Notes: generated from the letters alone by a model not told the origin. DNA of 20,503 nucleotides from Candidatus Aenigmatarchaeota archaeon (GCA_043799675.1 JAZDNN010000015.1:1-20503), one strand, 5' to 3'. Shown: positions 2,037 to 19,500, numbered from the stretch's first letter. Program-made: numbers and translations.

Positions 2037-2200
2037 GGGCTCGTAGTCTAGCTTCATGTGAAGTTCGCTTCGCATGCTAGTCTGGTAGGATTCCAGCTTG
2101 GGGACGACCTAAGCTCATTAGATCGCCGAAATGCTGGCGACCTGTGTTCAAATGAGCGCGGAGCGCCAAAAGCGCTTTGAGAATCACAGCGAGCCCACCA
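2037..2200 (+). tRNA. tRNA-Pro(GGG) with three introns: 2054-2082 (17/17a), 2104-2131 (37/38), 2153-2183 (59/60); CCA encoded
   Basis: Spliced 76-mer GGGCTCGTAGTCTAGCT|TGGTAGGATTCCAGCTTGGGG|TGCTGGCGACCTGTGTTCAAA|TCACAGCGAGCCCACCA folds into a cloverleaf. Each intron has a 4-bp central helix and 3-nt bulges: CTAG/CTAG, TTGG/CCGA, TTCA/TGAG. Confidence 0.92.
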
Positions 2201-2209
2201 ATCGCTGCT

Positions 2210-2623
2210 TCATGCCGGATTGATGCTGGCCACTTTCACGGTGAAAATCAGCGTCTTGCCCGCCAGCGGACTGCTTCCGCTTGTACCGTAGCCTTGCTCA
2301 GGAGAAACGGTAAATGTCTTCTCTTCCCCCGCTTTCATTCCCAGCACGCCGCTATCAAAGCCCGGGATGACCTGGCCCGAACCGACCGTAAATGTAAACA
2401 GCTGCTTGCCCACGTTGCTGTCCACCGTGCTTCCGTCCACGACCAGCGTGTAATAGACCGAAATCGTATCGCCTGTTTTGACCGCAGCGGCTGTCGGGTT
2501 CGCCTGCCCCACGCAGCCTGCAATCAGCAGCAACGGTACAACAAGCAGGATGATAGTTCCCCGATGCAAGAAACTGACGGGCAAAATTCTCCGGCATGCG
2601 GATGTGACGGGCAAAAGAATCAT
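2210..2623 (-). CDS. FKBP-type peptidyl-prolyl isomerase, putative lipoprotein (true start may be TTG at 2569)
   Basis: GDTISVYYTL..DG..VDSN, FTVGSGQVIPGFDSGVLGMKAGEEKTFTVSPEQGYG, PLAGKTLIFTVKV. Hydrophobic signal ending in lipobox LIAGC. Confidence 0.9.
   Translation of the reverse strand: MILLPVTSACRRILPVSFLHRGTIILLVVPLLLIAGCVGQANPTAAAVKTGDTISVYYTLVVDGSTVDSNVGKQLFTFTVGSGQVIPGFDSGVLGMKAGEEKTFTVSPEQGYGTSGSSPLAGKTLIFTVKVASINPA
2550..2616 (+). repeat. Dispersed repeat, tandem copies 2a (2550-2586) and 2b (2587-2616)
   Basis: atgatagttccccg-atgcaagaaact-gacgggcaaaa followed by ttctccg-gcatgcggatgt-gacgggcaaaa. Ends 3 nt from the rpoN stop. Confidence 0.75.
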
Positions 2624-2814
2624 CGCTTGAACTTCGCTATCTGCGGAAGGGTATCCACCTGCGTCAGGAGCGCGCTCCTGCAGCAGTAGTTTGTCACACC
2701 GAGGCTGTCAAGGACCGCCTTGCTGCTCTCGCCTTCCACCACCCGTTTCTTCAGCGTTTCCCAGTACTGCCCTATCGGGCGGCCGCAGGAAATGCAACGA
2801 ACCGGACACATCAC
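2620..2814 (-). CDS. rpoN: RNA polymerase subunit Rpo10 (N)
   Basis: (M)MCPVRCISCGRPIG...LDSLGVTNYCCRSALLT. Start GTG 2814 or ATG 2811, preceded by GGGGAGG. Confidence 0.95.
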   Translation of the reverse strand: MMCPVRCISCGRPIGQYWETLKKRVVEGESSKAVLDSLGVTNYCCRSALLTQVDTLPQIAKFKR

Positions 2815-2816
2815 TA

Positions 2817-3713
2817 TTATCCTTCCTCCCCAAGTTTCATTACTTCCTCTAGCAGACCAAGAGGTTTTAAAGCTAGCGCTTCGAGCAGCTGCCGCAGCCG
2901 CTGAACGCTGGGCTGGCGTTTGCCCCACTCGATGCGCTTAAGGTAATCATAACTGACGCCTGCTTTTTTTGCAAACTGACTGCGAGTTAAATCAAGCTGC
3001 TCGCGCTTGGCTACAAGTACATGACAGATAGCTGGCTCATCTGACAATAGCTTCAGCCAATCATCTTCGGTCGGCCATTTATCGCGGATGTAATGCAACC
3101 GCCTGCCGCGACCCTTGCGGCCGGTGATACAGCCAGAAATTTGATCAGGGGGTTCCAGACCTATCAGTTTAAAGAACCGTACTGCAGTACATCCTCGGCC
3201 AACTAATACAAAACTGCCATCCGTCTGTCGCTGTGGTGCAAAATCCAATTTCTTTTCACGTAATTTTGTTACAAGCAATTGAATATCGCTATATCGGAAA
3301 CAATTCGTTGCAAGTACAGGGTAGGGCTTGCGGTTGCCGCCATGACGGTTCATCGAACCGTCGCCTATGTACCAGTGTAACAACGCAACGGGTGTGAGAA
3401 ATAAATCCTTTGGAACAATCTTCTGAGTTTTGTCATCGCCATCCACGTACCATCCTTTCCGGAGGCCGAGAAGGCGCTCGTCCTTCGTTTTGTTGATGTA
3501 AAATCCGAATGCGAAACAGCCTGTGATATTATTGTCAACTCCAATGTAACTGTTAGTAATTCCGTTTTGTTCAAACTGCGACTTCAACCATCCGAGCAAC
3601 TGTTGATCTTTAGCGACGCATTTGTAGTAGAAATATTTGCCCTTCCATACACGTATATTCGCATCACCGAGCAACGTACCATCAATAATCTGCATTAAGT
3701 GCTCGCTAATCAC
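2817..3713 (-). CDS. Free-standing LAGLIDADG endonuclease with C-terminal XRE/Cro-type HTH
   Basis: QIIDGTLLGDA and KIVPKDL.LTPVALLHWYIGDGS motifs, LATNCF. C-terminal REQLDLTRSQFAKKAGVSYDYLKRIEWGKRQPSVQRLRQLLEAL. AT-richer than neighbours. Confidence 0.85.
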   Translation of the reverse strand: MISEHLMQIIDGTLLGDANIRVWKGKYFYYKCVAKDQQLLGWLKSQFEQNGITNSYIGVDNNITGCFAFGFYINKTKDERLLGLRKGWYVDGDDKTQKIVPKDLFLTPVALLHWYIGDGSMNRHGGNRKPYPVLATNCFRYSDIQLLVTKLREKKLDFAPQRQTDGSFVLVGRGCTAVRFFKLIGLEPPDQISGCITGRKGRGRRLHYIRDKWPTEDDWLKLLSDEPAICHVLVAKREQLDLTRSQFAKKAGVSYDYLKRIEWGKRQPSVQRLRQLLEALALKPLGLLEEVMKLGEEG

Positions 3714-3786
3714 GCGTTTATTTCTCTTGCTTACTTAAACGGTTAATGCGTCGCGGAGCTATACTCTAGAAAACATATTTACTAAC

Positions 3787-4260
3787 CTATCGCTTCGAGC
3801 GCTGTTTATGCCTACGGGGTCCAGTTTTTGACCGGCTGGGTTTGTGAGGTTCCGTCCTTCTGGGGTCGGAAACCAGCAGCGTCCTGTCATACGCAATGAA
3901 TATCGGTTTGAGCTTCCGGTCGAATCCGACGAGCACGTTTGCTATCGCGGTCCTTGCGGCATCCGCCTGCCCTATCGGCCCGCCGCCCGTGACGTTCACC
4001 TCTATGTCGACGCCTTTCGCGGCTTCCCCTGCGACAATCACGGGCTCCTGCATCTTGAGCCTGGCCATCTCCGGCTGGATGATTGCAAGCGGCCTTCCGT
4101 TGATCATTATTATTCCGCTTCCCGGCCTGGCAATCGCCCTTGCGACCGCCCTCTTCCTGGTTCCCAGAGTCTGTACGATCTTGACCTTCTTCTTCGACTG
4201 AACAGGCTCGGAAATTATTTCCCCGTCACCGATTGTCTGTTTGATGTTTTCCGCCATCAT
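3787..4260 (-). CDS. rps9: 30S ribosomal protein S9 (uS9)
   Basis: GTRKRAVARA, VNVTGGGPIGQADAARTAIA, YDRTLLVSDPRRTEPHK..GPR..KQRSKR. ATG at 4260 overlaps the L13 stop (ATGA). Confidence 0.95.
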   Translation of the reverse strand: MMAENIKQTIGDGEIISEPVQSKKKVKIVQTLGTRKRAVARAIARPGSGIIMINGRPLAIIQPEMARLKMQEPVIVAGEAAKGVDIEVNVTGGGPIGQADAARTAIANVLVGFDRKLKPIFIAYDRTLLVSDPRRTEPHKPSRSKTGPRRHKQRSKR

Positions 4261-4757
4261 GACGCATCTCCGCTCGTGCCGGACGGCCACCTTTCGCTCT
4301 TTGCCCCCAAGGATTTGCATATCTCGCCCAAGGTGGTCCATTTGCACGTGAGCTCATTGGCATTCTTCCCGAACTTCTGCGCCTTGCTCTTGAACTCGGG
4401 AGGAGTCCCGATGTAAGCGGTAAGCCTCTTGATTGCTTCCCTTCCCCTGACGTTTTCCGGAAGCATCCCCTCGATGACCCTCCTCAGCACCCTTTCCGGA
4501 TATCTCGGATAGAACGGTCCCTTGAACGGGTCCCCTCTCTGCCTCTTGTGAGCGAACCAGCGGCTGGTCCACCACGGGTCCCCGCTGATCGCTATCTTTT
4601 CGGTGTTCACAACGGTGATGTGGTCGCCCATCAGCAGCCTCTTCGCGAGCTTGGCTGCCAGTCTTCCGAGGACCGCCCCTTCCGCGTCGATCACTTCGGG
4701 TCCGAAAGCCATCCCGGTCTTCGGTATTTTTTTCAAAGGCAAAGGTCCTTTCATCAA
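4257..4757 (-). CDS. rpl13: 50S ribosomal protein L13 (uL13)
   Basis: IDAEGAVLGRLAAKLAKRLLMG, VVNTEKIAISG, GPFYPRYPERVLRRVIEGMLP. Confidence 0.95.
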   Translation of the reverse strand: MMKGPLPLKKIPKTGMAFGPEVIDAEGAVLGRLAAKLAKRLLMGDHITVVNTEKIAISGDPWWTSRWFAHKRQRGDPFKGPFYPRYPERVLRRVIEGMLPENVRGREAIKRLTAYIGTPPEFKSKAQKFGKNANELTCKWTTLGEICKSLGAKSERWPSGTSGDAS

Positions 4758-5119
4758 ATCATTATCCTGACGTCTTTTCCCGTCGGTTTTCTTTCCACCA
4801 GTTCGGGTATGCTCATCACCTTTCCGCCGGCCGCCTCTATCTTGTCCCTTGCGGCAGTGGAAAAGAATGCAGCCGCCACATTGACGGATTTTGTGATTGT
4901 CCCGCCGGCAAGCACCCTTCCCGGGACCACGATGGTGTCCCCTTTGACTGTGTTCCTGTCTATCTGCGACAGGTTCACTTCCGCCCTCTTCCTTTCCGTC
5001 CTTTCGAGAAGCTTTGCCAACCTGAGCAGGAAGCCGTCTTTCTCCTTGTGCCCCCTTTCCCTCAAGCCTGCTATGAGCTGTACAAGCAGCGGATTTGTCG
5101 GCCCCGTCGGATTAGGCAT
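4754..5119 (-). CDS. rpl18e: 50S ribosomal protein L18e (eL18)
   Basis: TNPLLVQLI..L, RAEVNLSQIDR, IVVPGRVLAGG, FSTAARDKIEAAGG. ATG 5119 lies ~22 nt after the TATA box TTTATAAA (5149-5142). Confidence 0.93.
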   Translation of the reverse strand: MPNPTGPTNPLLVQLIAGLRERGHKEKDGFLLRLAKLLERTERKRAEVNLSQIDRNTVKGDTIVVPGRVLAGGTITKSVNVAAAFFSTAARDKIEAAGGKVMSIPELVERKPTGKDVRIMI

Positions 5120-5179
5120 ACGCCTCAATCGCTGGCCACATTTTATAAATGGCGTTCCCGGGGCCGGAATCCGCCTTAA

Positions 5180-5734
5180 CTAGGGTTCCTTGTGAAGTTT
5201 CCGTATCCTTTCAATCCCGCCCAGCTTCCTGATGATACTTGCAACAGATTTGCCGGTCATGTGCTCCCATTTCCTGTTCTTTGCGATGGATTCCCTTATT
5301 CTCGTGGAAGAGATGGGACCCGTCCTCCTGAACCTGATTATCCTTTTCTTTCTACTCTTTGCCTCTTCCTCAATTGCCTTCTCCAGTTCCATCTTAAGCC
5401 CGGTCCTCTGCTCCTTGAGCTCGTGTGTCATGAAAATCACGTCGAACTTCGGCACGCTGTCCATGACGTGCCTGACCCCCTTCCCGAAGGGCATCTTCGG
5501 ATCCGGAAGGGCGAATATTCTCACCCTCTTCATGTCAATCCCCTCTTCCTTGAGGTAGGCTTCAAGCATCCGCTTCCTCTCGGCACCGCTGAACGGGTTG
5601 TCCTTCTCATATTTTCGCTCCGCAGAGCCGATAACGACTATCAGCCTGTCCACCTGAAGCAAGGCTTTCTTTATCACCCACATGTGCCCGGCGTGCGGGG
5701 GATTGACCCTTGCCCAGAAAAATCCCGTTGTCAT
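5180..5734 (-). CDS. NadM-like nucleotidyltransferase (HxGH superfamily; NMN adenylyltransferase-like)
   Basis: RVNPPHAGH, IVVIGSA, NPFSGAERKRML, ISSTRIRESI...WEHM. Start moved to ATG 5734 because the longer ORF overlaps tRNA-Leu. Confidence 0.8.
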   Translation of the reverse strand: MTTGFFWARVNPPHAGHMWVIKKALLQVDRLIVVIGSAERKYEKDNPFSGAERKRMLEAYLKEEGIDMKRVRIFALPDPKMPFGKGVRHVMDSVPKFDVIFMTHELKEQRTGLKMELEKAIEEEAKSRKKRIIRFRRTGPISSTRIRESIAKNRKWEHMTGKSVASIIRKLGGIERIRKLHKEP

Positions 5735-5798
5735 GGATGGTGCAGGTGCACCACTTGATTGCTTCACCAAAGGATGCTTTTTTCCAACTCTAATCATG

Positions 5799-5959
5799 TG
5801 GTGCGGGGGAAGTGATTTGAACACTCGTGGGGCCTTCGCCCACAGGATTTCTATCTTAAGGGTTCCTTGGATGTCAAGTCTTAAGTTTCGCACAGGCATC
5901 ATCCTGTCCTGCGCCTTTGGCCATGTGAAAACATTTGGACCTGGCTTGGCTACCCCCGC
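5799..5959 (-). tRNA. tRNA-Leu(TAA) with three introns: 5935-5917 (21/22), 5907-5887 (30/31), 5879-5849 (37/38); CCA encoded
   Basis: Spliced 90-mer GCGGGGGTAGCCAAGCCAGGTCCA|AGGCGCAGG|ACTTAAG|ATCCTGTGGGCGAAGGCCCCACGAGTGTTCAAATCACTTCCCCCGCACCA, with long variable arm and A73. Central helices GGTC/GGCC and CGCA/TGCG; the third is imperfect. TATA ATTAATAA at 5989-5982. Confidence 0.9.
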
Positions 5960-6023
5960 AAACAGAAAAGCGCAGCGGAACTTATTAATGAACTATATGA
6001 CTGCCGCAGCAGCAAAAGAATCG

Positions 6024-6057
6024 TATCGCTCCGTCAAAAGGGTGTGACGAGAAAAAA
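6024..6057 (+). repeat. Dispersed repeat, copy 3
   Basis: tatcgctccg-tcaaaagggtgt-gacgagaaaaaa. Shares aagggtgtgacgag (14 bp) exactly with the copy at 7088-7123. Overlaps the last codons and stop of the small membrane gene. Confidence 0.8.
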
Positions 6058-6249
6058 GACGCCTGCAACTATCATCAAGCAGCCTATCAGGACGAATGCC
6101 ATCCTCTTGTTGCGCGTGACCACAGCACCTTCCTTCGTACCGGCTTTCATGATCTGCCCGTAAGTGCCGAATTTCAGGTAATAAAGTAGCCGGGGTGAAA
6201 CCAGGAAGACTATGCCGACAATGATGAAAATTATGCCAATTACGTTCAC
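6034..6249 (-). CDS. Small membrane protein with two transmembrane helices (71 aa)
   Basis: Hydrophobic stretches VIGIIFIIVGIVFLVS and MAFVLIGCLMIVAGVFFLV. GTGA start/stop coupling with rpoD. Confidence 0.7.
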   Translation of the reverse strand: MNVIGIIFIIVGIVFLVSPRLLYYLKFGTYGQIMKAGTKEGAVVTRNKRMAFVLIGCLMIVAGVFFLVTPF

Positions 6250-7016
6250 AGTTTACCGACTTCCTTCCCGAAGTCCTTGGCCTTGTCCCTGAGGATTTCC
6301 ACGCTCTTTGCAAGGATTTCCTCGGCCTTCAGGCCCGAGATGCTTTCAATCGTGAATATTATCTTTGAAGCGCTGTTGGCTATTCTCGCCCCGTGGCCGA
6401 CTTCGCCCTTTACCTTGCACTTCCCGTCCTGGTATGCCTTCACGGGAAGGATGCCGCTCCCTTCCATCATCAATGCATGCTCCATGCAGGGTTCCACAAG
6501 GACCTTCCCTTCCTTGTCAACGATTGTCGGCCAGCCCATGTACCACGCCTTTGCCGCCTGCCACTTGGCATGCTCATCACCGGTCCCGAGCCTGGCAGTC
6601 ATTTCCACCTTGAATTTCTCGTCCTTGGCGAGCTCTATCAACGGGATGTCCTCCAGCAAAGGTTTCGCCACTTCCGCGTCCGCGCTCTTCATGTCCTTGC
6701 TGTACACCGTGCACGGTCCCTTCTTGTCTATTACAAACACTATCTGGCAGTTCGAGCATCCCTTCCCTTCGCAGTCGCATTCCCCCTTCTTCGAGAAGTT
6801 CTTGGCGTCGAACCAGAGCGGGACCAGACCCAGCCTGTGAGCGACCACCTCATCATACATTGCGCTGTCGTTGGAATAGAAATCAACGCTCTCGACCGCA
6901 AGCACGGGGACCTCGGTCATCGCTATCCTTCTGAGGGCATTCGCAAACTGCGGACTTGTCTCGTCCATGATAACCTTGAACCTGTTACCTTTCCGTTCAA
7001 CCACATCTATGTGCAT
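6246..7016 (-). CDS. rpoD: RNA polymerase subunit Rpo3 (D)
   Basis: FANALRRIAMTEVPVLAVE, NDSAMYDEVVAHRLGLVPL, CDCEGKGCSNC, ARLGTGDEHAKWQ, IFTIESISGL. Confidence 0.96.
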   Translation of the reverse strand: MHIDVVERKGNRFKVIMDETSPQFANALRRIAMTEVPVLAVESVDFYSNDSAMYDEVVAHRLGLVPLWFDAKNFSKKGECDCEGKGCSNCQIVFVIDKKGPCTVYSKDMKSADAEVAKPLLEDIPLIELAKDEKFKVEMTARLGTGDEHAKWQAAKAWYMGWPTIVDKEGKVLVEPCMEHALMMEGSGILPVKAYQDGKCKVKGEVGHGARIANSASKIIFTIESISGLKAEEILAKSVEILRDKAKDFGKEVGKL

Positions 7017-7039
7017 CGCTTAAGCCTCCTATCCGATTG

Positions 7040-7047
7040 TTTATAAA
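7040..7047 (-). promoter_or_regulatory. Internal TATA box upstream of rpoD
   Basis: TTTATAAA 23 nt before the rpoD ATG. A GGAGG ribosome-binding site is also present at 7029-7025. Confidence 0.6.
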
Positions 7048-7048
7048 C

Positions 7049-7123
7049 ATTATATTTCCCCGTTCCACGGGTCTGACGGGCAATCCGTATATTGCTCCGT
7101 CCTCAAGGGTGTGACGAGCAAAA
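7049..7123 (+). repeat. Dispersed repeat, tandem copies 4a (7049-7084) and 4b (7088-7123)
   Basis: attatatttccccg-ttccacgggtct-gacgggcaat and tatattgctccg-tcctcaagggtgt-gacgagcaaaa, between the S11 stop and the rpoD promoter. Confidence 0.8.
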
Positions 7124-7140
7124 GGTTTCCGGAAAACCTT
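7120..7140 (-). terminator. Hairpin with U-tract directly after rps11
   Basis: Minus strand AAGGTTTTCCGGAAACCTTTT. Confidence 0.4.
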
Positions 7141-7537
7141 AAACGCGCCTGCCCCTTCTCCCGCCTTTTTTTCTGCATGTGTCGTGAGGGACAGGGGTAA
7201 CATCTTCTATGGTCCCTATTCGCATGCCCGCCCTTGCCAGCGCCCTTATCGCCGGCTGTGCCCCCGCTCCGGGCTGCCTGCTCTTGATCCCGCCCGGTGC
7301 CCTGACCCTGATGTGAATGCCGTTGATTCCCTTGGCAAGCGAGGTCTCGGCGGCCTTGAACGCCGCCTGCATCGCCGGGAACGCGCTGCCCCCTTCCCTG
7401 TCCTTGTCGGTCATCTGACCGGCTGTTACTCTCGCTATGGTCTCTCCGCCCGTCATGTCCGTGATGTGTATGATGGTATTGTTGCCCGAGCTGAAGATGT
7501 GCGCTATGCCCCATCTGACCTGTCTCGGTTCAGGCAC
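7139..7537 (-). CDS. rps11: 30S ribosomal protein S11 (uS11)
   Basis: [57 protein letters not shown]. Confidence 0.97.
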
Positions 7538-8086
7538 TTAGACGCCCTCCTTCTTCGGCTGCTCGACCGGTGCCGGCTGGGCGGGCTTTTCCTTGTGCCC
7601 GGCCGCCCACTCCTTTGCCGCCTTGAACTTGCTCTTTGGGGCGTAGGCGAGCTTTGAATCCTCGACCGTTGGCATCAGTGTTGACGGCCACTTCACCTTC
7701 TTCCCGTCGACGGCTATGTGACCGTGAATTATGAGCTGTCTCGCCTGCTTCGCTGAGGTCGCGAAACCCTTCCTCAGGATTACGGTCTGCAGCCTCCTCT
7801 CCATCAGGTTCTCCACCTTGAGCTTGAGAACGTCCTCCAGTCCGGCCCCCTCGCGGAGAAGCCCGAGCTTGACCAGCCTGTCCAGCAGGATTTTCTCCTT
7901 CTCCGGATCTCTCTTGCCACGCAGGTCCCGCGCCCTTGTCCTCCATTCGGACAGCATCCCTTCCGCCCGCCAGATTTCCTTCTTCCTTCTGAGCCCGTAA
8001 TTGAGCAGCAGCACCTTTTCCTTCTCCAGCCTCTCGCGATTCCAAGGCTTGAGCGGGGTTGAGAATTTTGCGACCTGTTTCTTCAT
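7538..8086 (-). CDS. rps4: 30S ribosomal protein S4 (uS4)
   Basis: [47 protein letters not shown]. Confidence 0.96.
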
Positions 8087-8097
8087 CTATAGCACCT

Positions 8098-8790
8098 TTA
8101 TTTCTTTTCCTCTTTCTTCGCCGGAACTGCAGCGACCTTTCCTGCCGGAGCTGCTCCCTTCACCGGCGCTGCTGCGGCTCCGGGTTTGGCCGCCCCCGCC
8201 GCAGGCGCTCCTGCCGCCGGTGCCGCTCCCGCGGCCGGCTTGGCTCCCTTGGACGCCTCAATTAATTTTGACCTTGTGACTCCGGCAGTCATTCCCGTCC
8301 TGAAGCTGCTCCTCGTGCGCTGCCCCCTCACCGGAAGGCCGAGCTCGTGCCTCACTCCCTTGTATGAATGTATTTTCTTCATGCCGTCTATGTCGAACCT
8401 GTGCGTCATCATGAGCGTTGAAGAAACGATGTGCCTCGTGCCTCCTTCCGTCGGGTCCGCCCTCCTGTCCAGCATATGGGGCGGCATTCCGACCGACGCC
8501 GGGTTCCGTATGGCGGCCTCAAGCCTGGCGAGCTGCTCGTCGTTGAGGCTTCCGATGACGATGTTGGCGTCCATCCCGACCGCCTTTGGCAGCGCCGCGG
8601 CGAGCGTGTGGCCGACGCCCCTTATCTTGAGCAAAGCGGCCCTCAGTTTCCTGGTCCCGTCAAGGTCGGTTTCCACTATTCGCACTATTCCGCGTATGCC
8701 TGCCGGCACTATCTTCTTCTTTGCCTCCGGCCTCTTTTGCTCCGTCTTGGCCTTCGAGTCCCTGGACTCTTTTTCGTAGACCTTTTGCAC
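8098..8790 (-). CDS. rps13: 30S ribosomal protein S13 (uS13) with Ala/Pro/Gly/Lys-rich tail
   Basis: IVRIVETDLDG, ALLKIRGVG, SYKGVRHELGLPVRGQRTRSSFR. TATA TTTATAAG at 8819-8812. Confidence 0.96.
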   Translation of the reverse strand: MQKVYEKESRDSKAKTEQKRPEAKKKIVPAGIRGIVRIVETDLDGTRKLRAALLKIRGVGHTLAAALPKAVGMDANIVIGSLNDEQLARLEAAIRNPASVGMPPHMLDRRADPTEGGTRHIVSSTLMMTHRFDIDGMKKIHSYKGVRHELGLPVRGQRTRSSFRTGMTAGVTRSKLIEASKGAKPAAGAAPAAGAPAAGAAKPGAAAAPVKGAAPAGKVAAVPAKKEEKK

Positions 8791-8857
8791 GCCCAGCTAT
8801 CGATTACAACCCTTATAAATAATGTATAATTGGGACGCCGGATGCGATAATAAATTC

Positions 8858-8930
8858 ATGTTTCTCCGGCACAGAAATGTGACGGGGAAAACATGATATT
8901 TCTCCGTTCACAAGGATACGACGGGGAAAA
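8858..8930 (+). repeat. Dispersed repeat, tandem copies 5a (8858-8891) and 5b (8893-8930)
   Basis: atgtttctccg-gcacagaaatgt-gacggggaaaa and atgatatttctccg-ttcacaaggatac-gacggggaaaa. Ends 2 nt from the stop at 8933. Confidence 0.85.
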
Positions 8931-8932
8931 CG

Positions 8933-9574
8933 CTATTTCTGATTCACTTTCTCCGAGACGGCGCCGGCAAACATGGGCGCGTAAAGGTGGGCGGCGCTGA
9001 TTGTGGACCTGCTTTCGACCTTCCACACGAGGTTACCGTTCCTGCAGATGACATATGCCCAGTCCCCCTGGACCGGGAACGGTTTCAGTATTCCGCTGCA
9101 GCCTTCAATATTCTTTACGGACAGTTCGGTGTAGTTTCCGGTGGCCGCCTTGTCCCACAGGCTCTGGCGGAACGATTCCGCATTCTTGGTGTCATTGAAT
9201 AGCCAGGCATAAGAAAATACGGTGCTGACTTCCCCGCTGTTCTCGTTTTTCTGGCTTAACGTGACATAACCGCTTATGAATCCGGTAGCATCCTCGGTCT
9301 GGTTCATCTTCTGGGCTATGAACCATCCGGTCGGCAGGTCCTCCCCGCTCAGCACGAATGCCGCGGTAGGCCCGCTGTAATTCGGTCCTGTCAGCTTCTC
9401 ACCGAAAGCGAACATGCCTCCGCCCACCGCCGCTATGACAATGATGGCAGCCAGCGCCATTTTCCATCCCTTCTTCCTTTCGGGGACCGGTCCGCTCGGC
9501 ATTTCCGGCGGCCCCTGCGGGACTCCCGGAGGCATCTCAGGGATGTCGGGCTGCATCGGCGCTTCTTCTGGCAT
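8933..9574 (-). CDS. Single-pass membrane protein with Pro-rich N-terminus and extracellular domain
   Basis: MPEEAPMQPDIPEMPPGVPQGPPEMP..., RKK followed by TM ALAAIIVIAAVGGGMFAF, then LSGEDLPTGW and N-x-S/T sequons. Start set to ATG 9574 because the longer ORF overlaps tRNA-Ser. Confidence 0.75.
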   Translation of the reverse strand: MPEEAPMQPDIPEMPPGVPQGPPEMPSGPVPERKKGWKMALAAIIVIAAVGGGMFAFGEKLTGPNYSGPTAAFVLSGEDLPTGWFIAQKMNQTEDATGFISGYVTLSQKNENSGEVSTVFSYAWLFNDTKNAESFRQSLWDKAATGNYTELSVKNIEGCSGILKPFPVQGDWAYVICRNGNLVWKVESRSTISAAHLYAPMFAGAVSEKVNQK

Positions 9575-9632
9575 GCCACAACAGACATGCCAAAGGATAA
9601 AAACGCAGCAGATTCCGTTCGGCCTTTCAAAA

Positions 9633-9808
9633 TGGCGCCGCCGGCAGGACTTTCGCGCAAGCGAAGGTGCGTGAAGCGCCTTCACTGCATTCGAACCTGC
9701 GCGCCTCTTGCGAGGCACCAGATACCCTGGCTTATTTCTCAAGTCTGGCGCGTTGAACCTTTGAAGGAGAATTTGGCTGCCCAAAATCTCAAGCTTCGCT
9801 ACAGCGGC
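9633..9808 (-). tRNA. tRNA-Ser(TGA) with three introns: 9791-9761 (17/17a), 9737-9724 (37/38), 9689-9650 (59/60); CCA encoded
   Basis: Spliced 91-mer GCCGCTGTAGCGAAGCT|AGGTTCAACGCGCCAGACTTGAG|ATCTGGTGCCTCGCAAGAGGCGCGCAGGTTCGAA|TCCTGCCGGCGGCGCCA, with long variable arm and G73. Central helices GAAG/CTTC, CTTG/CAGG, TTCG/CGAA. TATA TTTTAAA at 9836-9830. Confidence 0.92.
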
Positions 9809-10617: not shown

Positions 10618-11211
10618 TTATACCTTTACCAAGTCGTTCAGTTCCGCTTTTGCTTCGGCTGATAATAACGTCCTCCTTCCACCATAATGATCCTTGTTTA
10701 TCTCAAGCACACGCTGCACAACAATCGCCTGCTCTCTTTTCACCACAAGAGAACCTGCGATTTGTGGAAGCAATTTCAGTAGTGGTCTCGACGAGAGTTC
10801 GTACATCCACATAGGCTTGTATTTGCCCTGTCTTTTGTTGAATGAAATGTGCCCAGAGCCTACCACGGATGCAATTTTGTATACAAGTTCTTTATTGGTA
10901 TTTCCTATCATGAGTCGTGGATGGTAGCCGACCGATTTTTCAGTCCGTATCATATGCAATGTCAGCGTACCTTCGCCATCAATGAGTCCGCACAACCAAC
11001 CTTTCTCGAAGTCGGATAGTATTCTGCATACGGTATCAATCTTGGTCAAACCCAAGCCGTATGCCTTTGTATAGATGCCGTGCATGCTGTGTTTCGGGAG
11101 CAGTTTTACGAGTTCTGCGCAATTCCTACTCTTGTGGGTCCGCTTCAATATTTCAACTTCGTCCTGAGTCCATTTTGAAAAGGTCTTCGGTGCTCTCACA
11201 ACTAACAACAT
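10618..11211 (-). CDS. Free-standing single-motif LAGLIDADG endonuclease with N-terminal Myb/HTH-like segment
   Basis: KWTQDEVEILK...LVKLLPKHSMHGIYTKAYGLGL, then EKGWLCGLIDGEG, YHPRLMIGNT, LLPQIAGSLVVKREQA. AT-richer than neighbours. Confidence 0.82.
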   Translation of the reverse strand: MLLVVRAPKTFSKWTQDEVEILKRTHKSRNCAELVKLLPKHSMHGIYTKAYGLGLTKIDTVCRILSDFEKGWLCGLIDGEGTLTLHMIRTEKSVGYHPRLMIGNTNKELVYKIASVVGSGHISFNKRQGKYKPMWMYELSSRPLLKLLPQIAGSLVVKREQAIVVQRVLEINKDHYGGRRTLLSAEAKAELNDLVKV

Positions 11212-13518: not shown

Positions 13519-16500
13519 TCAAGCCATCGTAGCTATGAACGTCACCGTGCTCGTCTTCGCACCCGAGGGCTCGCTGTTCGGGACCGCGATCGCTATCTCG
13601 GTCTCAATCTGGTCGGTCGCGTTCAACCAGTCGAGGAAGCAGATGAACTGTGGAGGTGTTCCGCCCGAGACAGGCATGTAGAACCAGCTTGTGTTGGTGC
13701 AGAGGGTGTTGTAGGTCGTGCCTTCGGTGCTGGTGTTCGCCGCGGCCCTGTAAGCTGAGCTTGGGTTGGGGCTGATTGTGAACATGTTGGTGGCATTGAT
13801 GGTTATGTTCGCCTTGATATTGCCGTCGTTCCTTATCTCGAACGGCAGGGGTTTGTCATCCGCAGTGTCATTGACGGTACCGGTTGACATGTTGCCGAAG
13901 GCGACCGTGTCCGTTGTGAGTGTTATCAGGATGCTGGACTGTACAGTGAACGTGCTGACGCTTGTCGCGTTCTTCCCTCCGTCCGAATTATTCGCATGTA
14001 TTTTCCAGCCGACCACGGTGTTTCCGGCCACGGAATCGTTGAACCAAGTGATGTTGGACCAGGTTCCCGCACCGAATGCTGTAGCCGTCTGGTTCCTCCA
14101 AGTACCGGATTCGTTGGTCTCAAGCCAGTAGTAGTTCAGGCTTGTGGCGTTGGTGCTCCAGTTGGCATACAGCTTGACTCCTGACCAAGCCGACGGTGTC
14201 GTGGTGTTTGAACCGGCAAGGTCCGAGAAAATGTAAGTAGCCGCCTGGCTCTGCACTATGCTCACCGTCGGCTCCGGATAGATGTACTTGCGGACGCGGA
14301 AATCGTCCCACCACGTCTGGCCGGCGTTGCTGCCCCACAATCCCGCCTTCGTGCTTGTCGTGAGGTTCGAATTATAGCCCGTCATGGACGTCCCGTTGAC
14401 GTTGAGCGTGAAGTTGCTTCCCGACACCGAGAGCCCCTCATAATAGTAGTTGTTCGCACCCAGCGTCTTGGCTGTCGATACGTTGTATGCTCCCGATACG
14501 GAGTTCAGCGTACCGAAGATGCCGATTATGTCTCCGGGGTAGTTCAGGTATGACGCGAAGAAATTGCTCTGGTTGGCATACCTGAAGTTGTATCCCGCCT
14601 GGCCGCTGTCCGCAGTCCGCCCGACGGTGCCTTCAATCGTATAGTTGTCAGATATCCCTATGTTGGCGTAGAGCGTGTCATTTACGCCGCTGCTCGTAAG
14701 CTTCCCCCTGTATGAGCCGCCCGTAAGTTCGATGGTCCATGAGCCGTTCCCGGCGGTCCATTTGCTATTATCCACAGTAAGGTTACCGTTCTTGGTTATT
14801 CCGACCTGCCTGCCTCCGTGCGTCTGGTTCGGGCCGCCGTCATAGAGCAGCGTCAGGACGCCGTTCTCATATATCAAACCGGCAACTCCTATTGAACCGG
14901 AATCCCAACCGGAAGTTGATCTGTTTATTATGCTACCCTGATACGTCCATGAACTCAGGTCCGCGCTGGCGTTCCTGTAAAGGAAATTCGCATCCGTATG
15001 TTCTCCCGTATAATTGATATGGTTCGTTACCATGTAATAATTATTGTCAATTGCCTTGATTATCTTGGGATTTTCCTCCCATGTCAGGGTTCCGGATGCC
15101 AGGCCGGCATACGTCCAGTGGAAAAGGTCCGTTGATTTGAAATACACTATCCTGACTATGGTCGGGTCGGAGCCGCCACAAAACAAAAGCCACTGGGATG
15201 AATTGGACGGGTCGCGCAGCAGTTCGTCGCATATGACGTGATAGGAATATGGCGTTCCCGCCGTGGGCACTATGACGGGGTTTCCGGCATACTGGACCCA
15301 TGAAGAAATGTTGGAGACGTTGGTCGTGGTTGCCATTTCCACCCAATATGCCGGCTTGGGTGCATTGTAAGTCGCGGCATCGGTCGTGGTGTTGGAACCC
15401 ATGTAGTACATGTAGTAAGTGCCGTTATACTTGAACACGTACGCCGAACTTCTGGTCAGACTGTTCCACGGAGCGCTCGAGAAGTTCTGTGTAACCAATC
15501 CCATTCTCGTCCAGTTATACAGGTCGGTGGAAGTCGCCATCGATTCGTACCACTCGTCGCCGGACACGGTTCCCTCCGAAGTGTAGAACATGGTGTAGGT
15601 GCCGTTTTCCTGGAACGTCTTCTCGTAGGTGACGTTGTCAATTATCTGCAATATGTCGACTTCCCGTATGCCGCGGTTGTCATACGGGGCGCCCGGGTAA
15701 GTGATGTTCATCACCGGGTTACTTGCATATCTGCTGAAATGCGTGACGTTCAATGATGTATCGGACGCCCCTTGGAAATCGTCAAAGAAGATGAAGGTCG
15801 CATTCCCGCTGCTCACGTTTTCCGCAAGCATGTTGCCGTAATACATGGTTATGTATGTGGTCGTGTTCGCCCAGATGAGCGGGACCTTGACAACGAAGGT
15901 CGTCGTCGGGGAATTGCATGTGCCGCTCCACAGCCAGTGAGACAGCAGGCCGTAGGTGCTGTTCACGAACCTTGCATCAAGGCAGCTCGTATTCATCTGC
16001 CCCGCGGATATCAGCGTCGCCGTATCGATGCTCACGTTGACCTGGTAATCAGTGAGATTCACCGGGAGACTGTTTGAAATGGATATGTTTTTCTGGTAGG
16101 TATAATTGCTGTTCCACCAGCTTGTCACGGTGACCTGCCTTTCCGATGAGTACACAGAATCAGTTGAGTTGTATGCCCTGCATCTGATGTTATAGGTGTT
16201 CAGGTCGTGCGCGGTGACGGTCTCGCTCCGCTGGGTGTTGTTCAGGACGTTCGTTTCGGGGTTCGTCACGAGGGTGATGTTCCATGTCCCCGAGGTCGGG
16301 ATCGCGGTCCAGCCGAAGGTCGAAGAGTTGTATTCGTATGATATGTTATTCCCGGTCGAGGCCCCATTCGTTATTGCGGTGCATGCAATCGTGAATGTGC
16401 TGCCGGGGTACGTGATGGTATCCGTCGCTGGTTGGTCAAGGCTGACCGAATAGACCGTTGGCGACCCTATGTAAAAGACGGCCCCTGTCTCCGTGTCATT

Positions 16501-19500
16501 CGCCGTGCCACCGCTGTAGGAGGTCGCGTTGGCCAAAACGAACAGGTTCTTTGCGCCGCTGAGCCCGACGGGCACGGTGCAGGCAACACTCCATGTTCCT
16601 GTAGCTGAATCATACGTTGCATATGTTCCCTCCTCCGCGCCCGTTGTACTGGCGGGCTCTGTCCCGTACCATTTGCGCACAAAAATCCAGTCGGTTGTCA
16701 TGTTGCCGCTGCCCCACGAACTTGGGTCGCCTACTGACTGATAATACCGGAGCCCTGTACTGTTTATGTTTTCAGCGAATACGGTTGAAAAGATGCTATA
16801 GGTATCGTTATAGAAATACCATGTTATGTTGGTTGCATTGATTTTTTGCACTTCATGCGTCCATAACCCCGAAGGCATATAATAACCGGTTCCCGCACCG
16901 CCGACAAATATTTGCCGATTATCGAACACGCCGTAGTCGGTCGGGACATCCGCGCCATGCGCCTTGGACCTGATTCTCATGTCCGGAATGATACCGGTAA
17001 ACATTACCCTCCGTTCTATGCTTATGTTCGGTGCGAACGTTTTTGTGCTATTAATCTGATGGAACGCTCCGCCCGCCGAATATTGATTAAGCAGGCCGTC
17101 TGATACCGTTGCAACAGAGGTATTGTTTGAAATAACCACCCATTTGGCATGGTCAATGCCACCAGTGGTATTGTAAAGACTGTTATTGTAAGAACCGCCG
17201 TCATAAATCTGTGGGTTGTCCAGGATGTATCTTAGAGTTCCCATGGGTGATTCCAGGTTGGTATCGAATCCCTGGCTGCCGTTCTTTGCCCAGTATTCCA
17301 CGTCGGGGTTCGTGCTGTTCGAGAGCTGGAGCGTCAGGTTGTATGCAAGGCTCGCGTTCTTGACGGCCAGTGTGGTCAGTATCCAGTCGTTGCCGAAGCT
17401 CCAGTAACCGTCGTCGTAGGTCGAAAAGAGTGGCGTGGACCAGTTGTTCGGGGTCTGCAGCACGAACCCTTTGTAGGTTATGGAATTGAAATTATTCGCG
17501 AGGTAATCCTCGATGTATGACGCCTGCGACGCGTTCGCGACGCCGAGATGGACAGCAAAGGCGCTTCCCACGATGTCCGTCAGGTTGTTCGCGCCGTCCG
17601 CCGCGTGGAACATGTTGTCCGTGTCGTTCCACAGCCTGGATATGTTGCCCCTCACGTTGTTTGCCGCGTTCGTGAAGTAGGTATAGTTTTGACTGTCCCC
17701 GCTTATGTTCAGCAGATAGGCCATGTCAACCGAGGCCTTGTAATACATCAGGGACCCCAGCAGGTTGTTCCCTGTGTTCAGTACACCGTCCCTGAAACCG
17801 AACGGCACCCAGGGGCTGGCTGGGGCCACATAGACCAGGCCGGTCGTCGAGTTCATCTGGACCGTCTTGAGGGCGTTTATCAGCTTGACCCTGTAGCCGG
17901 TGTTGAACACGCTTATGTCCCCTGTCTTGTTGTAATACAATCTCGCCAATTGCGGCATCAGGAATTGCGCATCGCCCCCTGCATGGAGATGCCAAGAATC
18001 GTATCCCGAATAGTAACTGGCGGCGGCACCGTTCGTGGCCAAGGATATCGGCATTTCCCCGCCAGCATTTGCGGCATTCATAAATTTGCTGATAGTATTG
18101 TTAACATGAGAAGCATTGAAATATTCGGGATAGCCGATCATAGTCAGACCGATGTCCGCGGCGTATGCGAAAACGTAGCCCGGTGCAGCCTGCCAGTAAT
18201 CCGTCCCGTCCGTAAAAGTGGTGTGGTCTAATGAAATCACGTTGTCCGCAGCCGCCCTTACGTTGTTGTAAATGGTCTGGTTTTCGCTGTAAATAAAACT
18301 GTTGAAATCATCAAACAGTATGAAAGTATCGTTGCCGCTGCTTCCGTATGCATGGCTCATGTTTCCGTAATACATCACTAGGTTTTCGGTCCCTGCCGCG
18401 GGGATGTTCGGCACTTCGACCCATATCCTGGTGCCGGTCGTGTTACAGCCGGACTCTATCCAATGATCGATCTCCGCGTTTGACGAGTTGAAAAATCTTA
18501 TATCACCGCAATCGGAGCGCATCTTTCCCGCCGCGATGAGGGCAGAAGTGTTGACTGTAATATTGACCTGATAGTTCGTCAGTGCGAAGCCCAAGCTGTT
18601 TGTGATGGTCGTTCTTTGCAGATAGGTACCTCCGCTGCCGGAGCTCTGCAGCTGGCAGGTCTGCCCGCCGACCGTAATGTTGGTCACGCTGACGCCGCTC
18701 GTGACATTTGTCCCGTCCCTCGTGAAGGTGTAGTTGACGGTGATGTTCTGCCCGTCCGTAACCGAAACGGGATTCCCCTGGGTCGGATACGTGATGTTCA
18801 GTGTAAATGTATGGGGGTTTACAACGACCTGCCTTGTTAAGGAGTAGACCGATGTCGTCGAGCTGTTTGCATTGCAGCGGATGTTGTAAGTGTTCGCCGT
18901 CCTCGTCGTGACCGTTTCGTTCTGCTGGCTGTTGTTCTGGACGTCCGTTTCGGGGTTCGTCACGACGGTGAGATTTGCGGTTCCCGAGGTCGGAATCTTG
19001 GTCCAACCGAAGGTCGACGAGTTGTATTCGTATGTGATGTTGACTCCGGCCGCTGCGCCGCTGGTATTTGCCGTGCATGCCATCGTGAACGTGCTGTCGA
19101 CATACGTGTTCAAATTCGTCGTAGGCTGGTCAAGACTGACCGAATAGGCCTCCACTCCCTTGACCGTGACCTGCTGGGTCGCGGAGTAAACGGATGCCGA
19201 CGAGTTGTACAGCTTGCACCTGACGTTGTACGTACCCTGCAAATTTCCGGTGACATTTTCGGATTTCATGATTCCGTTCAGGACGTCGGCCTTGGGGTTC
19301 GCCGATATGGTGATGTTCTGCCCGCCGGCCGTTTCAATCGCCTTCCATGCCATCGTTGACGAGTTGTATTCATATGAAATGTTGACTCCTATGGTGGCCC
19401 CACCGGTGGTCGGGGTGCAGTTCATGCTGAACGTCTGGCTTCCGAATATGCTGGGGTCGGAAGTGGGGGCGTTCAGGGCGACCGAAATCACGTTCGGAGT

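Follow-up and report, generated by a model that had tools for sequence, protein, structure and literature searches.

Multiply interrupted tRNA genes and shared T-loop intron families in an Aenigmatarchaeota genome

A 20,503-nucleotide (nt) stretch of archaeal DNA, referred to here as the window, raises the question of what is encoded between its positions 2,037 and 9,808, where the original prediction, made from the sequence, had placed three transfer RNA (tRNA) genes, each split by three introns. The window is contig C12 (JAZDNN010000015.1) of a 748,753-base pair (bp), 45-contig metagenome-assembled genome (MAG; GCA_043799675.1) with a completeness of 83.4% and a contamination of 0.08%. If these genes are real, it has to be asked how far such interruption extends through the genome, which enzymes could remove the introns, and how the introns came to sit where they do. 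The evidence set out below indicates that these are very likely genuine archaeal tRNA genes with protein-spliced introns of the bulge-helix-bulge (BHB) type, and that interruption is the rule in this Aenigmatarchaeota genome.

Interrupted tRNA genes in the window and across the genome

Standard annotation detects none of these genes: ARAGORN returned no tRNA gene in the window, and Rfam gave no match at the gathering score and no tRNA match at E ≤ 10. Interrupted genes were sought with a search of our own, which starts from BHB candidates composed of a 4-bp central helix (four exon bases preceding the last two bases of the 5' exon, paired with intron bases -6 to -3) together with outer and inner helices. 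The search then looks for a T-arm, in which one intron is permitted, with acceptor strand, discriminator base and CCA after it, and next for a 7/7-bp 5' acceptor strand upstream of this anchor (anchor criteria: T-arm score of at least 11, 7/7 acceptor stem, CCA). Finally, candidate introns are combined, and those combinations are kept in which the D-arm and anticodon arm form and the variable region has a legal size. Introns without a motif were permitted at position 37/38 and later also at 59/60, and a solution was accepted when the product spliced in silico was recognised by ARAGORN.

The window holds exactly three tRNA genes with three inserts each, and removal of the nine inserts leaves canonical cloverleafs for tRNA-Pro(GGG), tRNA-Leu(TAA) and tRNA-Ser(TGA), all with an encoded CCA. 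tRNA-Pro(GGG) (2037..2200, plus strand) comprises four exons, which join into a 73-nt cloverleaf identified by ARAGORN as Pro(ggg). Its first intron lies in the D-loop at 17/17a (2054..2082; 29 nt), forms a perfect 4-bp central helix with an inner helix of at least 7 bp and an outer helix of 1 bp, and is unique in the genome. The second, at the canonical 37/38 site (2104..2131; 28 nt), and the third, in the T-loop at 59/60 (2153..2183; 31 nt), both form strict hBHBh' motifs, with outer and inner helices of 5 and 3 bp (no mismatches) and of 5 and 6 bp, respectively. An independent metagenome contig (L069) carries an identical tRNA-Pro(GGG) structure with the same three inserts.

tRNA-Leu(TAA) (5799..5959, minus strand) yields an 87-nt class II cloverleaf recognised as Leu(taa), and is interrupted in the D-arm at 21/22 (5917..5935; 19 nt; perfect central helix, 4-bp inner helix, no outer helix), in the anticodon stem at 30/31 (5887..5907; 21 nt; strict hBHBh' with a 3-bp outer and a 4-bp inner helix) and at 37/38 (5849..5879; 31 nt). 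Removal of this last insert is required for the anticodon arm to form, and its geometry is of a bulge-helix-loop type without a clean BHB, in which a palindromic copy within the intron pairs with positions 32-37 and a 7-nt loop contains the 3' junction. tRNA-Ser(TGA) (9633..9808, minus strand) gives an 88-nt class II cloverleaf recognised as Ser(tga). Its D-loop intron at 17/17a (9761..9791; 31 nt) has a perfect central helix, a 4-bp inner and a 1-bp outer helix, and is also unique in the genome, and its 37/38 intron (9724..9737; 14 nt) has a perfect central helix and a 7-bp outer helix, with the inner part closed as a loop. The T-loop intron at 59/60 (9650..9689; 40 nt) combines a perfect central helix involving T54-R57 with an outer helix that is the 5-bp T-stem, and its minimum free energy fold consists of T-stem, central helix and an inner hairpin; its sole other match in a blastn-short search is an 18-nt segment on contig C45.

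Altogether, three of the nine inserts in the window form strict hBHBh' motifs, five a central helix with one flanking helix, and one (Leu 37/38) the bulge-helix-loop arrangement; the D-loop junctions are uncertain by 1-2 nt. The whole pre-tRNAs fold more stably than shuffled sequences, with z scores of -5.5 (Pro), -2.2 (Leu) and -3.5 (Ser). The predicted nine introns, six of them at non-canonical sites, were thus recovered at the exact positions foreseen, and the restored cloverleafs agree that Pro and Ser share all three sites (17/17a, 37/38 and 59/60). Perfect 4-bp pairing of the central helix with the insert's own exon is seen in eight of the nine inserts, the exception being Leu 37/38.

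A first pass of the search over the whole genome gave 43 anchor loci, 36 of which were solved; a T-loop scan without a motif requirement contributed Ser-CGA and Lys-TTT in addition, and manual work on the candidate lists yielded Met, Trp and His. The resulting census contains 40 tRNA genes with 40 distinct anticodons, all with an encoded CCA and all recognised by ARAGORN after intron removal. Thirty-nine of these genes are interrupted, by 69 introns in total (1.73 per gene), which bears out the genome-wide load that had been predicted and leaves no room for a genome whose other tRNA genes are mostly intron-free. One gene (Pro-TGG) is uninterrupted, 16 genes carry one intron, 17 two, five three and one (Met) four; since three of the five genes with three introns lie in the window, its tRNA genes represent the upper tail of the genome's intron load and are above its mean. 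Position 37/38 is occupied 25 times and 59/60 20 times, and the other 24 introns occupy 14 further sites, which lie in the D-arm, anticodon stem and variable region. Strict motifs were found for 16 introns, a perfect central helix with one further helix for 36, and one mismatch for 10, so that in 62 of the 69 the central helix has no more than one mismatch and is flanked by one or more helices of at least 3 bp.

The most heavily interrupted gene, tRNA-Met(CAT) (C16 18316-18568, minus strand; locus L026), has inserts of 31, 14, 88 and 43 nt at 14/15, 22/23, 37/38 and 59/60. After their removal every stem is fully paired, with one G-U pair in the T-stem, and two of the four junctions have a weak motif. 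The automatic solution at this locus, a 72-nt 'Ser', was rejected in favour of the hand-curated four-intron Met, which is a perfect cloverleaf. This is the sole CAT tRNA detected in the assembled part of the genome, where a second was not found; a tRNA with anticodon TAT (Ile) lies at C6 2210-2381 (plus strand). The isoacceptors absent from the census are the two for Glu, Cys, initiator Met, Arg-CCT and Leu-TAG, six of the standard 46 and hence about the loss expected at 83% completeness. The first 40 nt of tRNA-Arg(TCG) (C20 2787-2905) recur with 100% identity at C13 5-44, so that these two contigs probably overlap or adjoin.

It could be objected that the introns are products of an over-flexible search, or that the genes are decayed pseudogenes in a chimeric MAG. 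Three or four free deletions can indeed force random regions into cloverleafs: our first, unanchored search, which allowed up to four long introns, returned dozens of false cloverleafs, some scoring as high as 35 against 42 for the true Pro and 34 for the true Ser, and was replaced by the anchored one. However, the identical anchored pipeline run on the reversed (not complemented) genome found four anchor loci and solved none of them. Equally difficult to reconcile with this objection are the 40 anticodons without duplicates among about 46 expected in a genome 83% complete, the CCA encoded in every gene, the contamination estimate, and the independent metagenome contigs that show the same structures. 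The census, the reversed-genome control and the metagenome contigs largely refute an artefactual origin, which we regard as extremely unlikely.

Of the first 43 anchor loci, seven were not solved automatically, namely Trp and His (later solved by hand), a Thr pseudo-half that is a relic, and four others (C12+ 14116, C13+ 16621, C16- 15356 and C16- 52655), which were taken as false. Beyond Ser-CGA and Lys-TTT, the T-loop scan left C16- 51962, for which the only solution was low-scoring and implausible, with five introns, and was rejected, and six loci without a solution. A genome-wide search for tRNAs lacking CCA (226 anchors at 209 loci, best score 29) and one with looser anchors (6/7 acceptor stem, or an intron permitted at any T-loop position; best score 26 among 172 loci) gave nothing above noise. 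ARAGORN in intron mode reported 17 genes in the whole genome and was not used as a census, many of its models being wrong and some of odd length: two Arg genes were called selenocysteine (SeC) and Thr-GGT was called pyrrolysine (Pyl). The Rfam tRNA model gave 14 matches genome-wide, compared with the 40 genes of the census.

Intron families at the T-loop site

The 20 introns at 59/60 are not independent of one another, as 18 of them fall into three sequence families common to unrelated tRNAs, the two singles being that of the Ser-TGA gene in the window and that of Arg-CCG. Family A comprises 13 introns, two each in Ile, Pro, Lys, Gly, Leu and Ser tRNAs and one in Asn; family B comprises three, in Gln-CTG, Met and Ala-TGC, the last with an internal insertion; and family C two, in Asp and Arg-GCG. 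Identity reaches 100% over 47 nt between the introns of Asn and Lys-CTT and 98% over 57 nt between those of Gly-TCC and Leu-CAA, although the acceptor and T-stem exon flanks differ among the hosts of the same family. Pro-GGG in the window and Lys-TTT both carry truncated members of family A in the T-loop; that of Pro-GGG measures 31 nt and has 96% identity over 24-26 nt with its counterparts at 59/60 in Lys-CTT, Asn and Gly-GCC. When all introns were compared with the genome by blastn-short, those outside 59/60 matched only themselves, a few of the shortest returning no match. Similar introns in different isoacceptors with dissimilar exons, a mark of the transposed intron groups of Thermoproteales, are thus found in families A, B and C, and match the 'intron transposition' of that group in a further phylum, here confined to the T-loop.

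Folded one by one, the full-length members of family A form the T-stem and the greater part of the central helix, together with a closing helix (P1) and two hairpins. The subfamilies of 54-55 nt and 56-59 nt differ in hairpin sequence with pairing kept, which may reflect compensatory change, as judged from these single-sequence folds without a covariation statistic. For 17 of the 20 introns at 59/60, T54-T55-C56-R57 pairs without mismatch with intron bases -6 to -3 to give the central helix, and the 5-bp T-stem serves as the outer helix. The host's own T-stem would accordingly provide the motif's outer helix, and the near-invariant T54-T55-C56-R57 the exon strand of its central helix. Because the T-stem and these T-loop bases are present in every tRNA, one intron could complete the motif in any host: with the four complementary bases and two more at its end, it would form a full motif without tailoring. 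At 37/38, by contrast, positions 32-35, two of them anticodon bases, take part in the central helix, and an intron there must match its host. Shared families may be seen only at 59/60 for the reason that the motif at this site needs nothing host-specific. In the picture that we favour, the 37/38 introns and those scattered over D-arm and anticodon-stem sites are gene-specific and unrelated, and the 59/60 site holds a few families of structured 31-96-nt mini-introns copied among many unrelated tRNA genes.

The relatives of the source genome bear on when these copies arose. A search with CBF5, encoded in the window, returned 13 loci at 53-62% identity, all from MAGs labelled Candidatus Aenigmatarchaeota (seven) or 'uncultured archaeon' (six), followed by a Woesearchaeota MAG (43%) and a Sulfolobaceae genome (45%). 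By this marker the source is a tiny, uncultured Aenigmatarchaeota (DPANN) archaeon, in agreement with the original remark that the lineage does not look crenarchaeal. With the tRNA-Asn precursor as BLAST query, the family A part matched 11 other places in its own genome and none in 40 relatives, which were matched at the first exon, together with a few short matches to other exon parts. In the eight relatives whose locus could be solved as Asn (a ninth, L028, could not and is excluded from this count), tRNA-Asn has no intron or one at 37/38, never at 59/60. tRNA-Ser(TGA) of relatives L010 and L011 has a single 37/38 intron, and other Aenigmatarchaeota loci have introns at 30/31, 17/18, 53/54 and 59/60 in Arg and Glu genes. 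The lack of a 59/60 intron in the relatives' Asn genes and of family A in the 40 relatives suggests that the gains at 59/60 are recent.

A metagenome scan with the family A junction pattern gave 11 contigs, none of them identical to the source genome in the slice compared. Seven were solved with family A at 59/60 (Lys-CTT, Leu-GAG, Ser-CGA, Asn, Pro-GGG and twice Gly-TCC), and four were not solved. The two tRNA-Gly(TCC) contigs (L071/L075) differ at 59/60, one having a 57-nt intron of subfamily A2 and the other a 54-nt intron of subfamily A1, and their 37/38 introns measure 13 and 41 nt, compared with 46 nt in the source genome. On these sequences, intron turnover between close populations is clear. 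Both further elements of the original prediction find support here: positional hotspots exist (37/38 with 25 introns, 59/60 with 20), and intron gain is evident as copying, from the near-identical 59/60 families in unrelated tRNAs and the subfamily differences at Gly-TCC between populations. As a side observation, a search of sequencing runs listed no RNA run for this sequence, and in seven DNA sequencing runs at most 0.27 of the sampled words of the sequence were present.

Across the 40 relatives, the number of Rfam tRNA matches, a proxy for interruption that also depends on completeness and is taken from kin that are not independent, ranges from 4 to 55, against 14 in the source genome. Within the source's own family the counts are mostly 7-18, with 41 in one genus, and two other families are also low. 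Counts that differ so sharply, even inside one family, point to fast and patchy gain or loss of introns in Aenigmatarchaeota.

A bolder proposal would regard the 59/60 introns as still-active, structured non-coding mobile mini-introns, a 'universal T-loop cassette' able to enter any tRNA gene, since the exon half of the splicing motif would come from the T-stem and the invariant T-loop. This is rather doubtful. Were it true, natural populations that carry different subfamilies at the same site of tRNA-Gly(TCC) would be showing mobility in progress, perhaps aided by tRNA-adjacent LAGLIDADG endonucleases or the single reverse transcriptase, and this small genome would be a tractable system for learning how archaeal protein-spliced introns are gained.

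Splicing enzymes, mobile elements and the spread of introns

EndA and RtcB, as expected for the splicing of BHB introns, are both encoded in the genome. Two tandem EndA-domain (PF01974) genes lie at C10 51469-52295 (L018:1474-2552, minus strand). The product of the downstream gene is alpha-like: its best match in the PDB is the catalytic subunit of N. equitans (3IEY, E 9e-30), and it keeps the catalytic Tyr and His, with the same lysine-rich loop before the His. The upstream, beta-like product lacks the catalytic His. The alpha-like and beta-like pair occurs in the source genome and in 19 of the 40 relatives searched; genomes with two EndA genes mostly have low Rfam tRNA counts and those with a single one mostly have 26-55, with exceptions both ways. 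RtcB (C16 57796-59134, plus strand) matches its Pfam profile in two pieces (1-27 and 25-426) with 22 bases between them. The pre-tRNAs would be cut by EndA encoded as these adjacent alpha-like and beta-like paralogues, and the exons would then be sealed by RtcB.

Several points weigh against the reading of these inserts as protein-spliced introns with a portable T-loop motif. Splicing of the pre-tRNAs is deduced from sequence, seven of the 69 junctions have only a weak motif, and the boundaries of several D-arm introns were placed by hand. Most introns in the census were proposed from the BHB motif, a circularity of which a preprint on Asgard archaea warns (bioRxiv 10.64898/2026.10.13.758758); it is mitigated here in that introns without a motif were allowed at 37/38 and 59/60 and solutions had to pass the cloverleaf and ARAGORN test. 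Where M. jannaschii EndA has its catalytic Lys156, the alpha-like protein carries Ala, and its catalytic competence is on this account an assumption; the same residue is found in 16 of 16 alpha-like sequences aligned from this order (source and 15 relatives), in genomes with one and with two EndA genes alike. An RNAalifold consensus on a MAFFT alignment of family A failed to recover the two-hairpin model, owing to a one-column offset of the 3' strands between the subfamilies. Finally, a portable motif accounts for the survival of copies at 59/60 and leaves their arrival unexplained. The following proposals for their arrival or retention were weighed.

Sites 37/38 and 59/60 lie within the part of the tRNA gene that is targeted by known archaeal elements. 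This location agrees with the idea, which the original prediction shared, that introns are kept since they break the attachment sites of viral and plasmid integrases in tRNA genes, an adaptive shield. The idea has been published for archaeal split and intron-bearing tRNAs by Randau & Soll (2008), as cited in PMC4033280 and PMC4090602; here and below, statements from the literature refer to the accessible parts of the sources. As an effective shield would predict, attachment-type repeats of tRNA fragments were not found beyond one locus: partial copies of mature tRNA sequences elsewhere in the genome were absent, save for a contig-end overlap and a scar at tRNA-Thr. However, no tyrosine integrase (PF00589) was found in this 83%-complete MAG, which leaves nothing with which intron load could be correlated. 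The scar itself also speaks against protection. At C31 8798-9663 (L025:196-1064, minus strand), tRNA-Thr(GGT) is followed by a LAGLIDADG open reading frame (ORF) of 211 amino acids (aa) and then by a second piece, extending from variable loop to CCA, with a different T-stem and a 37-nt intron at 59/60. This locus looks like the scar of an insertion or replacement, in which the intron-bearing piece would be the displaced one. In addition, close relatives with about 40 Rfam-detectable tRNAs have the same genome size, and the near-identity of introns across unrelated tRNAs suggests that the intron itself has spread. Shielding from integrases is therefore not borne out, and we consider it unlikely as the reason for the introns.

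The LAGLIDADG ORF at this scar is one of about 12 free-standing ORFs of this kind in the 0.75-Mb genome, three of which are in the window, all on the minus strand: 388-1056 (Pfam LAGLIDADG_3), 2817-3713 (LAGLIDADG_2 plus a helix-turn-helix domain) and 10618-11211 (LAGLIDADG_1). Their number accords with a model in which free-standing LAGLIDADG endonucleases cut tRNA genes and introns spread by repair from another T-arm, or persist by destroying the cleavage site, much like the 'collaborative homing' of introns with free-standing endonucleases in phages. Four of the 12 ORFs lie less than 100 nt from a tRNA gene (Phe, Gln-CTG, Ala-GGC and Thr-GGT), and on random placement the mean number near a tRNA was 0.63, four or more being reached in 55 of 20,000 trials, in a test that takes no account of the confinement of both kinds of gene to the spaces between others. 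Against the model, Gln-CTG is the only one of the four adjacent tRNAs with an intron in the T-loop, family A is present in none of them, no cleavage site is known, and LAGLIDADG_3 counts in the 40 relatives show no visible relation to which genomes are tRNA-poor (6 tRNA and 0 LAGLIDADG matches in G009, 33 and 36 in G023). The endonuclease link is thus a weak lead, and as an account of the introns it is quite unlikely.

Movement could also proceed through RNA, with excised introns reverse-splicing into the T-loops of other tRNAs, followed by reverse transcription and recombination into the gene. One reverse transcriptase gene is present (C16:60554-61198), and the specificity for a BHB-competent position would fit an RNA step. 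Products of the complementary DNA type, such as intron-less or processed copies, were nevertheless not found in the search of the genome for tRNA fragments; reverse transcription as a route received no general support when it was tested in the Asgard preprint; and the review literature prefers a process at the DNA level (PMC4090602). This route is very unlikely. On the reading that we favour, in which protein-spliced introns are copied among T-loops, movement was probably at the DNA level between similar T-arms, and the spread would be selfish or neutral and not protective.

Among the other genes of the window are those for subunits D and N of RNA polymerase, for ribosomal proteins S13, S4, S11, L18e, L13 and S9, for a TYW1-like radical S-adenosylmethionine (SAM) enzyme, for CBF5 and for a Fic protein. 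An ORF of 2314 aa (13519-20463, minus strand), which occupies a third of the window, has three DUF2341 stretches and otherwise no Pfam match. The longest ORFs at 5180-5902 and 8933-9784 (both minus strand), the former nucleotidyltransferase-like with a Pfam match from residue 66 and the latter unannotated (283 aa), overlap tRNA-Leu and tRNA-Ser, respectively, so that both must have their true starts further downstream.

Comparison with known systems

The tRNA genes described here represent a known kind of gene disruption, and it is well supported that they occur in a lineage where none was found documented: no reports of tRNA introns in Aenigmatarchaeota were found in the literature searched, which covered few subscription journals and no supplements. 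Most of this organism's tRNA genes escape standard annotation (ARAGORN found none of the three in the window, Rfam 14 matches against 40 genes), which distorts MAG quality figures as well as inferences of codon usage and auxotrophy for such DPANN genomes.

Disruption of tRNA genes and diversity of EndA in DPANN archaea were described by Kaneta et al. 2018 (PMC5829648), including an (alpha-beta)2 EndA in N. equitans. In the accessible parts of that paper, the tRNAs of Aenigmatarchaeota are not covered and the name appears only where DPANN is spelled out; to the systems treated there, the present genome and 19 of its 40 relatives add a tandem pair of alpha-like and beta-like EndA genes. The intron layout over three arms seen in Pro and Ser of the window is also known from a single tRNA gene of a eukaryotic alga, with a different enzyme set.

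The closest parallel is provided by the Thermoproteales. Multi-intron tRNAs, relaxed motifs, co-variation with endonuclease type and shared intron families have been described for these and other archaea (PMC4033280, PMC4090602, PMC5829648), intron transposition being credited to Fujishima 2010 as cited in the first two. As in the source genome, most tRNAs of the Thermoproteales are interrupted, with many non-canonical sites and relaxed BHB motifs, similar introns occur in different tRNA species, and the splicing endonuclease is of a two-subunit type (Sugahara 2008; Fujishima 2010; via PMC4033280, PMC4090602). The source differs in belonging to the DPANN Aenigmatarchaeota, in its 0.75-Mb genome and in having one gene with four introns, compared with a maximum of three in the accessible part of a 2014 review. 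Its shared families are limited to 59/60, those of the Thermoproteales being compared here by their sharing across tRNA species.

The Asgard families of the preprint (bioRxiv 10.64898/2026.10.13.758758) resemble the source in that nearly all tRNAs are interrupted, many D-arm introns are missed by standard annotators, and gains are repeated and lineage-specific. They are reported to have almost no intron families across tRNA types, whereas 18 of the 69 introns of the source belong to such families. The same preprint quotes a per-gene figure of 1.54 tRNA introns for Pyrobaculum calidifontis and reports 2.2 inserts per gene, with up to five in one gene, for Asgard families; the burden of 1.73 in the source lies between P. 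calidifontis and the Asgard focal families. Densities similar to this one or above it are accordingly on record for P. calidifontis and Asgard families, and the novelty of the load predicted for this genome is restricted to its lineage. What distinguishes this case is the restriction of shared families to the T-loop site and the clear turnover between close populations. Shared families only where the motif needs nothing tRNA-specific offer a simple, testable rule for the sites at which introns spread, and the Aenigmatarchaeota become a second natural test case, besides the Thermoproteales, for tracing intron copies from gene to gene.

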